Shown here in pieces: positions 1 to 5,948 of a stretch of 5,948 bases of DNA (position 1 is the stretch's first letter; each line of letters starts with the position of its first letter). Both the position numbers and the translations under genes were made by a program. The stretch is taken from the IMG/VR virus record IMGVR_UViG_2579778745_000009; one strand, 5' to 3'. Below the pieces are notes generated by a model that did not search any database, had not been told where the DNA came from, and worked only from the letters and a program-made list of their open reading frames with translations. This DNA comes from a virus (Duplodnaviria; Heunggongvirae; Uroviricota; Caudoviricetes).

Positions 1-1
1 G

Positions 2-754
2 AAAGGGATAAGTGAAATCGCTGGCTATTATCCCAGAGTTATATCAGATGATTTGTTTTACGCTGTACAGGAAATTCGGTTGGCACCTTTTGGTATTAGC
101 AATAGTAGCAAGAATCCTATGCTAATAAATCTACTTCGAACAGTTATGAAGTGTGAGGCTTGTGGTAATACCATGATTGTTCATGCGGTATCTGGAAGTT
201 TGCATGGCTATTATGTTTGTCCGATGAGAAGATTACATCGATGTGACAGGCCATCAATAAAAAGAGATTTGGTTGATTATAATATCATTAATGAATTGCT
301 TTTTAATTGTAGCAAAATTCAACCAGTTGAAAACAAGAAAGATGCTAATGAAACTTTAGAGTTAAAAATTATTGAGCTTCAGATGAAAATTAATAATTTA
401 ATCGTTGCATTGTCTGTCGCGCCTGAAGTTACCGCTATAGCAGAGAAAATAAGACTATTAGATAAGGAATTACGAAGGGCTTCGGTATCATTGAAAACTT
501 TGAAGAGTAAAGGTGTAAATTCATTCAGTGATTTTTATGCTATTGACTTAACCAGTAAAAATGGACGAGAGTTATGCCGTACACTTGCCTATAAAACATT
601 CGAAAAAATCATAATTAATACGGATAATAAAACCTGTGATATCTATTTTATGAATGGCATTGTTTTTAAACACTATCCTTTAATGAAAGTAATATCCGCC
701 CAGCAGGCGATAAGTGCTCTCAAATATATGGTTGATGGTGAGATTTATTTCTAA
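2..754 (+). CDS. ybcK: Large serine recombinase, C-terminal part; gene continues upstream of the window
   Basis: Frame 2 is open from nt 2 to the TAA at 752-754; the track ORF 53..754 is only its TTG-initiated tail. The translation has a four-Cys zinc ribbon (CEACGNT...YYVCPMRRLHRC) followed by a long predicted coiled coil (ELKIIELQMKINNLIVAL...KELRRASVSLKTLKS), the typical C-terminal architecture of large serine recombinases. Consistent with DLP12 YbcK as I recall it. Confidence 0.8.
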   Translation, partial: KGISEIAGYYPRVISDDLFYAVQEIRLAPFGISNSSKNPMLINLLRTVMKCEACGNTMIVHAVSGSLHGYYVCPMRRLHRCDRPSIKRDLVDYNIINELLFNCSKIQPVENKKDANETLELKIIELQMKINNLIVALSVAPEVTAIAEKIRLLDKELRRASVSLKTLKSKGVNSFSDFYAIDLTSKNGRELCRTLAYKTFEKIIINTDNKTCDIYFMNGIVFKHYPLMKVISAQQAISALKYMVDGEIYF

Positions 755-1135
755 ATAATGATCTCGGATTTTAAGTTATGCTATGGTGATAAAGTGCAAG
801 ACAGAATTAATTATCTTTGACGAAACTTAATGGGTAATTACTTTGTTTGCTCCCACAAGCGAGTTTTGTACGGCTGTATTGGGGTAGTAAATGAGCTATA
901 CAATCTTAATCATTTGTTAGGTGAGAACTCTTGGTCGCAGATTCAAATACTGAAAATACGTGACAAATTATTATGAGCAAAATGGTGTATGTCACGTATT
1001 TTGAATGGTAGGTTAAAAAATAACACCGACTTTCGTAGGTATTACTAATAATAAAGCAGAGTTTTTAGATAGTATCAATGTGCTTTGTGTATATTGTGGC
1101 AAATAATTGGGTTGGGGGTACAATTGTGATTGCTT

Positions 1136-1165
1136 TTGCATAAACATTGCGCCTTTATGCATAAT
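1136..1165 (+). promoter_or_regulatory. Candidate sigma70 promoter for ybcL-ybcM, overlapped by an 8-bp inverted repeat (possible operator)
   Basis: TTGCAT at 1136-1141, 18-bp spacer, CATAAT at 1160-1165, about 55 bp upstream of the ybcL ATG. The inverted repeat TGCATAAA (1137-1144) / TTTATGCA (1154-1161) spans the -35 and -10 elements. Motif reading only. Confidence 0.3.
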
Positions 1166-1218
1166 GAGATAAAGGAATATCAAATAAAATAACGATAGGT
1201 CATAACAAAGAGGTTTTT

Positions 1219-1770
1219 ATGAAAACACTTATCGTTTCAACTGTATTGGCATTCATAACATTTTCTGCGCAGGCTGCAGCATTTCAGGTCACTAGTAATG
1301 AAATAAAAACAGGAGAGCAACTTACAACGTCTCATGTCTTTTCTGGATTTGGGTGTGAAGGTGGTAATACATCGCCCTCATTAACCTGGTCTGGTGTTCC
1401 TGAAGGTACCAAAAGCTTTGCCGTAACTGTATATGATCCAGATGCACCTACAGGCAGTGGTTGGTGGCATTGGACTGTTGTTAATATTCCAGCAACAATA
1501 ACATATTTGCCCGTTGATGCAGGGAGACGTGATGGAACAAAACTGCCGACTGGTGCTGTTCAAGGCCGAAATGATTTTGGCTATGCTGGGTTTGGTGGCG
1601 CATGTCCTCCTAAAGGAGATAAACCACATCATTACCAGTTTAAAGTATGGGCTCTAAAAACTGAAAAGATTCCTGTAGATTCTAACTCCAGCGGAGCGTT
1701 AGTTGGTTATATGCTTAATGCTAATAAAATCGCAACCGCTGAGATAACACCAGTTTATGAGATAAAGTAG
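1219..1770 (+). CDS. ybcL: Secreted PEBP/RKIP-family protein (YbcL/YbhB family)
   Basis: 183-aa ORF with an AGAGG ribosome-binding site upstream of the ATG. N-terminal Sec signal peptide MKTLIVSTVLAFITFSAQA|AAF. Contains the PEBP-family motifs YDPDAPTG and GDKPHHYQF. Matches E. coli YbcL as I recall it. Confidence 0.9.
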   Translation: MKTLIVSTVLAFITFSAQAAAFQVTSNEIKTGEQLTTSHVFSGFGCEGGNTSPSLTWSGVPEGTKSFAVTVYDPDAPTGSGWWHWTVVNIPATITYLPVDAGRRDGTKLPTGAVQGRNDFGYAGFGGACPPKGDKPHHYQFKVWALKTEKIPVDSNSSGALVGYMLNANKIATAEITPVYEIK

Positions 1771-1779
1771 GGTGAGAGT

Positions 1780-2577
1780 ATGCTGGCAAGAGGTAAGACT
1801 AACTTAAAGATCGAAGAAATACGGATGCATAAACATCATGAGATTCATAGGGTTAAGCCTCTTATGCCAGCTTTGTGTCGTATCCGTCAGGGAAAGAAAG
1901 TTATCAATTGGGAGACGCATACTTTAACTGTTGATAATAATCAAATAATATTATTTCCTTGTGGTTATGAATTTTATATTGAGAATTATCCTGAAGCAGG
2001 GCTTTATCTTGCAGAAATGCTTTACTTACCCATTGATTTAATTGAGAGTTTCCAAAAACTTTATACGGTAACTGATCAAATACGTAACAAAACAAGTTTC
2101 TTTTTACCTCAGAATCCTGAGTTAATATATTGTTGGGAGCAACTAAAAACATCTGTTTCCCGAGGCTTCTCAACTAAAATTCAGGAGCACTTAGCAATGG
2201 GCGTTCTACTTTCGTTAGGAGTGAATCATGTTAATCATTTACTTTTATCATATAGTAAACAATCATTGATAAGTCGTTGTTATAACCTGCTGCTATCCGA
2301 ACCCGGCACAAAATGGACAGCAAACAAGGTTGCTCGATATCTCTACATTTCTGTTTCTACATTACATCGCCGTCTAGCAAGCGAGGGGGTAAGTTTCCAA
2401 AGTATACTGGACGATGTGAGGTTAAATAATGCGTTGTCTGCTATACAAACGACGGTAAAACCTATAAGCGAGATTGCCAGAGAAAATGGTTATAAGTGTC
2501 CTTCTCGTTTTACTGAAAGATTTCATAATCGTTTTAATATAACACCAAGAGAGATAAGAAAAGCTTCCAGAGAGTAA
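1780..2577 (+). CDS. ybcM: AraC/XylS-family transcriptional regulator
   Basis: 265-aa ORF beginning 9 bp after the ybcL stop with a GGTGAGAG ribosome-binding site. The C-terminal ~100 aa form a typical AraC-type double helix-turn-helix ([17 protein letters not shown]...[33 protein letters not shown]). AT-rich like ybcL. Confidence 0.85.
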
Positions 2578-2609
2578 AAGTGTTTTAAGAAGGAGCAATT
2601 CTATCGATT

Positions 2610-2638
2610 TTGATTTTGGGAAATCAACACGGCATAAT
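2610..2638 (+). promoter_or_regulatory. Candidate sigma70 promoter for the nin-region operon
   Basis: TTGATT at 2610-2615, exactly 17-bp spacer, CATAAT at 2633-2638. The predicted transcription start falls at the foot of the 2642-2670 hairpin. Motif reading only. Confidence 0.35.
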
Positions 2639-2641
2639 TAT

Positions 2642-2670
2642 GTCACCGGAGCCTGAACAACTCCGGTGAC
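2642..2670 (+). other. Perfect 10-bp stem / 9-nt loop hairpin: ybcM terminator, or 5'-leader structure/operator for the nin operon
   Basis: GTCACCGGAG (2642-2651) and CTCCGGTGAC (2661-2670) are perfect reverse complements. Followed by TTCTGCGC, a weak U-tract. Lies 65 bp after the ybcM stop and 24 bp before the ylcH ATG, at the AT-rich to GC-rich transition. Confidence 0.35.
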
Positions 2671-2693
2671 TTCTGCGCTAAACGGGGACGTTT

Positions 2694-2795
2694 ATGCGCA
2701 CATACAATCCAAACTCTCTTCTCCCTTCACAGATGCAGAAATGCACCTGCAATTCTTTGCATCTAGCGTTTGACCTCTGCGGAGGTGAAGCGTGA
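2694..2795 (+). CDS. ylcH: Small Cys-containing protein (33 aa), first gene of the nin-region operon
   Basis: ATG at 2694 with GGGGA five nt upstream; translates to [33 protein letters not shown]. Its TGA (2793-2795) overlaps the ybcN GTG start (2792) in a GTGA coupling overlap. Below the length cutoff of the supplied ORF track. Position matches DLP12 ylcH as I recall it. Confidence 0.45.
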
Positions 2796-3247
2796 ACCTC
2801 TCACAAGACGGCATCAAATTACATCGCGGCAACTTCACCGCTATCGGTCGGCAGATCCAGCCTTATCTGGAGGAGGGCAAATGCTTTCGCATGGTGCTTA
2901 AACCGTGGCGTGAGAAACGCAGTCTTTCCCAGAATGCACTCAGCCACATGTGGTACAGCGAAATCAGTGAATACCTCATCAGCAGGGGTAAAACGTTCGC
3001 CACTCCAGCTTGGGTAAAAGATGCTCTCAAACACACATATCTCGGTTATGAAACCAAAGACCTGGTTGATGTCGTAACCGGTGATATCACCACTATCCAG
3101 TCGTTACGCCATACCTCCGATCTTGATACCGGAGAGATGTATGTCTTCCTGTGTAAGGTTGAAGCCTGGGCGGTGAATATTGGCTGCCACCTGACTATTC
3201 CGCAGAGCTGCGAGTTCCAGCTGCTCCGCGACAAGCAGGAGGCGTAA
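2792..3247 (+). CDS. ybcN: NinB/Orf-family protein (lambda NinB recombination-mediator homolog; reported DNA base-flipping protein)
   Basis: 151-aa ORF with a GTG start and GGAGG six nt upstream. The [18 protein letters not shown] segment resembles the RSLDQN core of lambda NinB. Occupies the ninB-equivalent position ahead of ninE. Confidence 0.85.
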
Positions 3248-4665: not shown

Positions 4666-4687
4666 TACGCCAATTATTTACTAAAAG

Positions 4688-4716
4688 TTATTAAAAATGG
4701 GGCGTTGAAACGCCCC
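4688..4716 (-). terminator. Intrinsic terminator oriented for the minus strand (porin transcript)
   Basis: Stem GGGGCG (4699-4704) / CGCCCC (4711-4716) with loop TTGAAA. On the minus strand the stem is followed by AUUUUUAAUAA (complement of 4688-4698). On the plus strand it is followed by CAAAAATAAAGGG, with no U-tract. Confidence 0.4.
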
Positions 4717-4756
4717 CAAAAATAAAGGGTAATATATAACAGAAGGTTTGTATAGT

Positions 4757-4804
4757 TAGAAGCAAGGTTGTGCTTCTAAAGGAAGTGGCTTGAGGGAGCC
4801 ACTT
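4757..4804. repeat. Two tandem perfect 8-bp-stem hairpins
   Basis: TAGAAGCA (4757-4764) pairs with TGCTTCTA (4771-4778). AAGTGGCT (4783-4790) pairs with AGCCACTT (4797-4804). Neither is followed by a U-tract on either strand. Confidence 0.4.
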
Positions 4805-4845
4805 ATATGTTGGGGAGGCAAAGCCTCCCACAACATATCTTTTAG
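4805..4845 (+). terminator. Intrinsic terminator oriented for the plus strand (quuD side), possibly bidirectional
   Basis: About 15-bp stem ATATGTTGGGGAGGC (4805-4819) / GCCTCCC-A-CAACATAT (4823-4838) with one bulged A and a 3-nt loop, followed by CTTTTAG. It lies only 16 bp from the porin stop codon on the opposite strand. Confidence 0.5.
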
Positions 4846-4853
4846 TAATCAAA

Positions 4854-5886
4854 TTAGAACTGGTAAACCATACCTACAGCAACGATATCATCGGTAGCAA
4901 CGCCAGATGCTTTCGTGAAATCGCTCTTATCAATCAGGTTGATTTTGTAGTCAACAAAAGTGGACATATTTTTGTTGAAGTAATAGGTTGCACCTACATC
5001 AACATATTCAACCAGGTCCTGATCACCCCAAACACCCAAGTCTTTTCCTTTAGAATGCAGGTAAGCAACGGATGGACGCAGGCCGAAGTCGAACTGATAT
5101 TGTGCAACAGCTTCGAAGTTTTGTGCTTTGTTGGCAATATGGTTATTACCAAAAACAGTCATGTTCTGGGTTTCAGAATAGGTGGTGGCCAGATAGATGT
5201 TGTTCGCATCATATTTCAGACCAGCTGCCCATACTTCAGCATTTTGACCAGAAGCATTCAGACCGTTGTTACCGTAGATAACCTGATTATTAGTGCGATC
5301 AGATTTAGCATAGGTTGCACCTACACCGAATCCTTCATACTCATAAGTAGTGGAGAAACCGAAACCATCACCATTAGCTTCAGTTACGTCAGTGCGGTCA
5401 TTTTTACCCTGATACTGAGCAGCAAAGTTCAGACCATCAACCAGACCAAAGAAGTCGTTGTTACGATAAGTTGCAACACCAGTGGTGCGACCAGTCATGA
5501 ACACATCTGTTTGAGTCCAAGTGTCACCACCGAATTCTGGCAGGACGTCAGTCCACGCACCGATGTCGTATGCTACACCGTAGTTACGGCCGTAATCGAT
5601 GGAGCCGTAGTCACCGAATTTCAGGCCAGCGAAGGCAAGACGGGTTTTATCTTTGGAGGAACCTTGAGATTCAGCGCGGTTGCCTTTGAATTCATATTCC
5701 CACTGACCGAAACCAGTCAGTTGATCGTTGATTTGGGTTTCACCTTTGAAGCCAAGACGGGCATAAGTAGTATCACCATCATCTGCATCATTAGAGGAGA
5801 AGTAGTGCTTAGCATTAACTTTCCCGTACAGATCCAGCTTGTTACTGTCTTTATTATAAATTTCAGCTGCCTGAGCAGACATCGCC
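4854..5886 (-). pseudogene. nmpC: OmpC/PhoE/NmpC(Lc)-family outer-membrane porin, 5'-truncated by IS1 insertion inside the signal-peptide codons
   Basis: Minus-strand ORF translating to ...[29 protein letters not shown]...[12 protein letters not shown], with a typical porin C-terminal Phe and an intact stop at 4854-4856. The reading frame runs without a break into IS1 sequence at 5887, so the track's TTG start at 5900 lies inside IS1. Only the last ~6 signal-peptide residues remain; native promoter, ribosome-binding site, start codon and hydrophobic core are absent. Confidence 0.75.
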
Positions 5887-5948
5887 GGTGATGCTGCCAA
5901 CTTACTGATTTAGTGTATGATGGTGTTTTTGAGGTGCTCCAGTGGCTT
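5887..5948 (+). mobile_element. IS1 insertion sequence, left end (IRL), partial; continues beyond the window
   Basis: 5887-5948 reads GGTGATGCTGCCAACTTACTGATTTAGTGTATGATGGTGTTTTTGAGGTGCTCCAGTGGCTT, which matches the IS1 left terminal inverted repeat and leader as I remember them, with the insA GTG start at IS1 position 56. Confidence 0.85.
5942..5948 (+). CDS. insA: IS1 InsA, first two codons only (GTG GCT ...); the rest is outside the window
   Basis: The GTG at 5942 corresponds to the insA start (InsA begins MASVSISCPSC..., GTG GCT TCT GTT in IS1). Only 7 nt are in the window. Confidence 0.5.

Follow-up and report, generated by a model that had tools for sequence, protein, structure and literature searches.

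An inverted repeat between ybcK and ybcL

The window, by which we mean the whole analysed stretch of 5,948 nucleotides, is a DLP12-type lambdoid prophage. The locus was placed with the help of its open reading frames and the annotated K-12 locus, and the gene order is ybcK (3' end), an inverted repeat (IR), ybcL, ybcM, ylcH, ybcN, ninE, ybcO, rusA, ylcG, quuD and, on the minus strand, nmpC, which is truncated near its 5' end at 5887-5948 by sequence that we take to be an IS5 terminus, as in K-12. The 3' part of ybcK occupies 1-754 on the plus strand, with its stop codon at 752-754. The genes ybcL (1219-1770) and ybcM (1780-2577), both also on the plus strand, are cargo that always accompanies the segment containing the IR. 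From 755 to 1218 the window is 99.6% identical to K-12, which makes its source a near relation of MG1655 and not MG1655 itself. The 3' flank of ybcK (755-826, plus strand) is common to other cargo variants, though diverged, and is followed by an orphan segment of 237 bp (827-1063, assigned to no strand), which carries the IR and is present only where ybcK adjoins ybcL-ybcM of the phage type. A 48-codon open reading frame inside the orphan segment (830-976) was considered as a gene and found to be unsupported, having neither a Pfam match nor a homologue beyond this arrangement. To the right of the IR, and outside it, lies the ybcLM promoter (GTGGCA-17-TACAAT, 1096-1124, plus strand; PMC3946193), in DNA that is common to the arrangement lacking ybcK. 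Beyond the cargo, a linker shared by the variants (2603-2669, plus strand) contains a hairpin, TCACCGGAG-N9-CTCCGGTGA, at 2643-2669, upstream of ylcH/ybcN.

The gene beside the IR had been taken, from the letters of the DNA, to encode a large serine recombinase, and this was borne out. YbcK (508 amino acids in full, from the ORF list and the annotated K-12 locus) is complete, with Resolvase, Recombinase and Zn_ribbon_recom domains that all score over the Pfam thresholds. Y7, R9, S11 (a serine of the catalytic type), the SLDRLSR motif (which includes DRLSR) and the four zinc cysteines are invariant in an alignment of 20 members of the YbcK family. A profile of this family matched the C-terminal domain of the A118/LI serine integrase in the PDB (4kis, E = 1e-15, residues 190-477); phmmer of the single YbcK sequence against the PDB gave no match. 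Judged by these features, YbcK is a genuine large serine recombinase (LSR), and ybcK is the only LSR gene of the region. About one in four complete E. coli genomes encodes the protein, as do infective lambda-like phages. Our literature search found no paper on the site or function of YbcK, and we know of no DNA site or role for it. A published intragenic PhoB ChIP site, TGTCACATCGATGTAATC, maps to 233-250 in ybcK, on the minus strand.

The IR consists of a left arm, AAAATACGTGACA (953-965), and a right arm, TGTCACGTATTTT (990-1002), neither assigned to a strand, which are 100% complementary over 13 nt and enclose a strandless spacer of 24 bp (966-989), with the whole site of 50 bp spanning 953-1002. 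Both a reading of the sequence and a repeat finder confirmed the two perfect reverse complements, 24 bp apart, with a dyad between G977 and C978, as first described; the central dinucleotide, GC, is itself palindromic. When one mismatch is allowed, the arms lengthen to 15 nt (951-965 and 990-1004). The inner 24 bp are essentially asymmetric, with 3 of 12 positions pairing, and a small inner helix is predicted there in RNA. The IR starts 199 nt past the ybcK stop codon, in agreement with the roughly 200 bp downstream of the recombinase gene originally given, ends 216 nt ahead of the ybcL ATG (1219), and corresponds to 570627-570676 in NC_000913.3. Its surroundings, earlier called a low-complexity AT-rich spacer, have a GC content of 0.32-0.35, and the description is a fair one. 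A promoter-like match on the minus strand (GTGACA-17-AATAAT, 967-995, 10/12) is a candidate whose -35 hexamer lies inside the right arm.

First-order Markov shuffling gave an estimate of how often such a repeat arises by chance. Perfect IRs with arms of 13 nt or more and no more than 60 nt between them turned up in 0.6% of shuffled whole windows, in 0.9% of shuffles of the AT-rich part (1-2600), and in 0.1% of those of the 464-bp intergenic region. The window itself holds one perfect IR of at least 13 nt only, the element at 953-1002. At 0.6% per 5.9-kb window, a genome of 4.6 Mb is expected to hold a few such IRs by chance. The IR is real and statistically unusual, and nothing shows a function.

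A further IR lies outside the window, in the retrieved locus L001 (6837-6871), and reads GTTCAAACTG-N15-CAGTTTGAAC, with 13-nt arms that contain one mismatch and a spacer of 9. It is located 16 bp upstream of emrE, between ren and emrE, is kept in several arrangements, and is absent from locus L005.

Cargo arrangements and distribution of the repeat

Arrangements were found by a distant search with window positions 1-2800, followed by locus retrieval. Arrangement A, the full layout as in the window, is present in 672 genomes. In the infective phages PhiR70_1, PhiR34_1 and PhiR68_2, the nin region reads ren-emrE-ylcJ-ybcK-IR-ybcL-ybcM-ybcN, and the annotation of PhiR70_1, the only one of the three consulted, shows a tyrosine integrase and an excisionase of the phage's own at the end of its genome. 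In arrangement B, emrE is followed after 63 bp by ybcL-ybcM-ylcH, beside fliE, and ylcJ, ybcK and the IR are missing (for example in strain HS, L006 4655-6514, and in L071 and L072); judged from identity bands, it seemingly occurs in thousands of E. coli genomes. The emrE-ybcL-ybcM-ylcH block at the fliE locus, a prophage remnant that often has an IS200/IS605 tnpA after it, shares about 90% identity with the copy in the phage. Arrangement C has emrE-ylcJ-ybcK, then other cargo, then ylcH/ybcN. O157 Sp8 has about 400 bp of non-coding DNA as this cargo, LF82, N24 and phage Perceval have an alpha/beta hydrolase, and FDAARGOS_1268, FORC_041 and phage Turner have a P22AR-C-terminal protein with hypothetical proteins.

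Comparisons of these arrangements place the edges of the variable slot at ~815-826 on the left (alignment A3) and ~2603-2608 on the right (alignment A4). Against arrangement B, the window has an extra block of 2.1 kb (ylcJ, ybcK and the IR segment), and strong homology resumes at 1119, with weak homology from ~1064. The ends of this 2.1-kb indel share no inverted or terminal repeats, only AATAAT microhomology. The IR is 126 bp and 62 bp away from the nearest breakpoints, and the breakpoint alignments therefore place it inside the 237-bp segment 827-1063. The sequence-only reading had raised the IR as a possible boundary of presence and absence of the ybcK-ybcL-ybcM block; the breakpoints lie elsewhere, at ~815-826, 1064-1119 and 2603-2608. 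The metagenome contig OERN01000871.1 (L094), with 94% overall identity, is a recombinant that equals the window up to 1118 and is of the fliE-locus ybcL-ybcM type from 1119, which shows that the exchange took place in the shared ybcL promoter region and not at the IR. Like the linkers at lambdoid mosaic boundaries, the IR lies in a region where cargos swap between conserved flanks; unlike them, it is not at a junction and is not common to the variants.

The 237-bp segment was found in 675 of 5,426 complete E. coli genomes, always as a single copy and at least 98.7% identical. All 675 copies were at least 80% covered and none was split, and not one of the 5,426 genomes has just one side of the IR, so no attL/attR-like product was seen among them. 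A query of ybcK with its immediate flank (1-826) matched 1,522 places in 1,423 E. coli genomes, and the IR is missing from more than half of the E. coli copies of ybcK. The infective phages Turner and Perceval also carry ybcK, as near-identical alleles, without the IR, and the YbcK protein of Turner is 99.8% identical to that of K-12. Exact-pattern scans returned 40 copies from viral contigs and 20 from metagenome contigs, all in arrangement A, and 3 copies of the segment are in phage records. No homologues of the segment 827-1063 were found beyond arrangement A. Conservation and covariation were set aside as evidence, as the copies (675 E. coli, 40 viral, 20 metagenome and 3 phage) are at least 98.7% identical except for L094; the segment is monomorphic, and its conservation is therefore uninformative on the IR. 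The few SNPs of the segment all fall outside the 50-bp IR, but with about five variable sites in the 237 bp this carries no information.

Partner sites and loci of YbcK homologues

A partner site with the same half-sites had been proposed as something to look for elsewhere in the prophage. The whole 48,757-bp genome of PhiR70_1 contains no partner half-site pair for the IR, and 13-mer matches with up to 2 mismatches, with the IR's own arms excluded, numbered 2, against 1.35 expected. The match CAAATACGTAACA at 2077-2089 in ybcM was rejected as a partner, being a lone half-site with 2 mismatches, no inverted mate nearby and a frequency expected by chance; the match at position 1480 of PhiR70_1 is likewise a lone half-site at chance frequency. 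Among viral contigs, the IR arms occurred at attB-like spacing in 17 matches, which were unrelated and showed no excess over chance, and an apparent excess at gap 20 was one sequence family counted three times.

Relatives of YbcK with 40-60% identity were found in Atlantibacter, Yersinia, Erwinia, Pantoea, Kluyvera and Citrobacter, and in most of the retrieved loci they appeared as prophage passengers. Some are located in nin regions between the replication genes and Q (L009, L055 and L060), others after tail-fibre genes, as in Yersinia (L011) and Erwinia (L013). The homologue loci contain no IR with arms of at least 10 nt and a spacer of 20-28 bp near the gene. A scan in attP geometry, from 500 bp upstream to 700 bp downstream of each YbcK-family gene, found no outer-arm symmetry of at least 10/13 in seven homologue lineages and three other E. 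coli cargo variants. The Erwinia homologue was considered as the integrase of its prophage and rejected, as prophage cargo runs about 1.2 kb past the gene and no nearby junction is definable.

Several further features were observed at these loci. In L011, L013 and L058 (Citrobacter koseri), the homologues lie directly after tail-fibre and tail-fibre-assembly genes, and one of them is oriented divergently to a gene that weakly matches Shufflon_N. Such a location is reminiscent of small DNA invertases, but no inversion of gene segments was observed. In L055, a metagenomic lambdoid contig, ybcK-like, KGG and DinI genes are located between an 81-aa DUF1367 fragment (4673-4918) and a full 198-aa DUF1367 gene (7653-8249), and this bracketing suggests cassette insertion or duplication at that nin gene. 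In L013, a LexA-box-like sequence, TACTGTATATCCAAACAGTA (8176-8195), precedes two small ORFs in the interval from the ybcK-like gene to lepA.

Possible roles of the inverted repeat

Our best single mechanistic guess, held tentatively, is that the IR is an orphan or relic attP-type site of YbcK, to which the fit of its geometry, the adjacency to ybcK and the 24-bp spacer, more apt for a protein site of two halves than for the loop of a terminator, point. In the A118/LI system, whose integrase was crystallised on an attP half-site, this half-site is 25 bp long, the recombinase domain covers positions 1-12 and is followed by a linker, positions 16-24 form a 9-bp motif for the zinc-ribbon domain, and A118-type sites show low similarity in the inner region bound by the recombinase domain (4kis; Rutherford et al. 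2013, PMC3783163). The IR is similar to this attP in being ~50 bp long with two 25-bp half-sites, in having its symmetry at positions 13-25 of both halves (the left arm running from 25 to 13 of the notional half-site), where it is concentrated in the distal zinc-ribbon-domain motif and low inside, and in adjoining a recombinase gene. That gene is competent as far as its sequence tells, and the C-terminal domain of YbcK is homologous to that of the A118/LI integrase. The att-like size and the symmetry in the outer flanks, which had suggested an attachment site in the first place, thus fit the published half-site layout (PMC3783163), with 50 bp in all and the symmetry in the outer 13 bp of each 25-bp half.

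On this attP-type reading, the identical outer arms, at positions 13-25 of the two 25-bp half-sites, would each be contacted by one zinc-ribbon domain of a YbcK dimer, and the asymmetric 24 bp between them would lie beneath its recombinase and catalytic domains; that YbcK binds the IR at all is something we only infer. ybcK and the site might then form an 'integrase-attP' module, a passenger cargo in the nin region of lambda-like phages, whose integration relies on their own tyrosine integrase. The IR would not be used to move the ybcK-ybcL-ybcM block, and would be dispensable and lost in other cargo variants.

The att cores of natural serine integrases are non-palindromic, because the core sets polarity; unlike them, the IR has a palindromic core (GC). 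Its arms are perfect over 13 bp, more than is usual for such sites, and the phage that carries it integrates by a tyrosine integrase instead. No attB, attL or attR is known or detectable for the IR, and it is missing from most ybcK copies and from all homologue loci examined, so that it does not travel with the recombinase gene (675 against 1,423 genomes). In place of split attL/attR junctions, the 675 copies are whole, with no partner in PhiR70_1. The GC core, the loss from most ybcK copies, the lack of equivalents in homologues and the lack of recombination products indicate that the IR, if it is of attP type, is an orphan or relic that is not active in cargo mobility. Of the att-like site first proposed, the nature of YbcK and the attP-type layout thus stand; the boundary, the split copies, the partner and the co-travel with ybcK do not.

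The main proposal of the sequence-only reading is highly improbable; under it, the IR would be an active att site, used by YbcK in the past or even now to mobilise the AT-rich ybcK-ybcL-ybcM cargo. Proximity to ybcK and att-like size are all that speaks for it. Against it, the IR lies within its segment, with 126 bp and 62 bp separating it from the breakpoints, the ends of the 2.1-kb indel share no inverted repeat, and the exchange of cargo occurs at conserved linkers typical of lambdoid mosaicism. An integrated element should moreover bear split attL/attR and not an intact symmetric site, and no split copies were found in the 5,426 genomes and no partner site in PhiR70_1. We regard it as improbable, too, that YbcK and the IR make up a working second site-specific recombination system in otherwise lambda-like phages with a tyrosine integrase (e.g. 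PhiR70_1), serving as an alternative route of integration or rearrangement, or as a roadblock or switch that bound YbcK would form between ybcK and the ybcLM stress operon, in hosts or conditions outside the sampled complete E. coli genomes.

An RNA hairpin and a neutral palindrome are close rivals of the attP-type reading. As RNA, the IR might be a weak, possibly bidirectional, intrinsic terminator or 3'-end stabiliser that closes the ybcK unit and insulates it from the ybcLM operon in a 'moron' layout (promoter, gene, terminator), a role that we consider conceivable and somewhat doubtful. Like the bidirectional terminators of lambdoid 'moron' cassettes, its stem is preceded by AAAA and followed by TTTT, and it lies between two separately promoted cargo units of the nin region, here within the ybcK 3' untranslated region and upstream of the independent ybcLM promoter. 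The RNA at 940-1015 folds with -18.9 kcal/mol (z = -3.3), other cargo variants have a hairpin and a T-run after ybcK, such as GCCCGCA-TAAG-TGCGGGC-TGCTTTTT in L004, and a terminator-like hairpin is also found at the upstream emrE. Unlike those terminators, and unlike intrinsic terminators with a G+C-rich stem and a loop of 3-8 nt, the IR has a loop of 24 nt and an AT-rich stem (5 of 13 pairs are G-C), and the U tract after the stem is just four nucleotides on either strand and able to pair with the A-run. It was missed by a terminator consensus scan of 700-1300, which returned 0 sites, and by published 3'-end maps, the E. coli Term-seq data having no 3' end near 570627-570690 (PMC7815308 supplement); this absence is weak evidence because ybcK is silenced upstream by a Rho-dependent stop near its 5' end (PMC7815308 supplement; PMC4150792). 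The 311 nt around the IR show no unusual RNA structure on either strand (z = -0.6 and -1.0), which speaks against a larger structured RNA, Rfam gave no family match for the whole window at E up to 1, and an RNA stem does not need perfect symmetry at the DNA level. A terminator d-score, calculated with the d'Aubenton-Carafa formula, was negative even for obvious terminators and was discarded as uncalibrated. The IR could also be a functionless palindrome. It would have arisen by chance or by mutation, for instance through template switching at a quasi-palindrome, in filler DNA that is young, AT-rich and silenced by H-NS, and would hitch-hike with one recombinant arrangement; to this we give about the same limited credence as to the hairpin. 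The segment around the IR is an orphan that lacks homologues outside a single arrangement, is monomorphic with no sign of selection, and is dispensable for ybcK and for ybcLM, and a rate of 0.6% per 5.9-kb window leaves room for a few such repeats in a 4.6-Mb genome. The rate of ~0.1% that this intergenic region gives for spacers of up to 60, with an even lower one for a spacer close to 24, argues against chance, as do the attP-like geometry and the adjacency to the sole large serine recombinase gene of the region.

It is unlikely that the IR is an operator through which another dimeric DNA-binding protein, from the host or the phage, affects ybcLM or ybcK from a distance. Two identical 13-bp half-sites, located 93 bp upstream of the -35 hexamer of the constitutive ybcLM promoter, would suit such a role, and genomic SELEX shows binding of H-NS and RNA polymerase to the spacer region (PMC3946193). 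A distance of 37 bp from centre to centre is unusual for the palindromes of transcription factors, however, the arrangement without ybcK retains the ybcLM promoter and lacks the IR, and the region's PhoB site falls within ybcK (233-250). As for YbcM, the local regulator, its binding is away from the IR: ChIP-exo gave one very strong site upstream of ybcL (570015-570048, signal/noise 357; PMC8464067 supplement), which is the sole entry for the region among the listed rows of the 12-site YbcM table (PMC8464067). The coordinates of this site are those of NC_000913.2, as the ucpA site shows, and were converted by way of ybcL, at 570893 in version 3, to approximately 1119-1152 of the window (no strand assigned), 117 bp to the right of the IR. 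This excludes the IR as the YbcM operator, and with it, for YbcM as the sole factor tested, the operator alternative of the original note. The YbcM site overlaps the -10 of the ybcLM promoter, in DNA common to the arrangement that lacks ybcK, and its position is consistent with YbcM autoregulation.

At most, then, the IR is an orphan or relic site, as it marks no cargo boundary, has no partner and was never seen recombined. If YbcK does bind it, the IR would offer a first handle on this recombinase family, whose members ride in nin and tail-fibre-proximal regions of enterobacterial prophages, and a candidate new integrase/attP pair for engineering; if it is just a hairpin or a neutral palindrome, the finding is an ordinary one. 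The sturdier biology nearby is the conventional mosaic cargo slot downstream of ybcK, and this well-supported part of the locus is ordinary lambdoid mosaicism, not recombinase-driven mobility. Directly downstream of ybcK, the slot holds at least 4 alternative cargos between the same conserved flanks (L003, L004, L005, L064, L065, L067, L069 and L070), and the exchange of cargo appears to be recent, because near-identical ybcK alleles bear different cargos.
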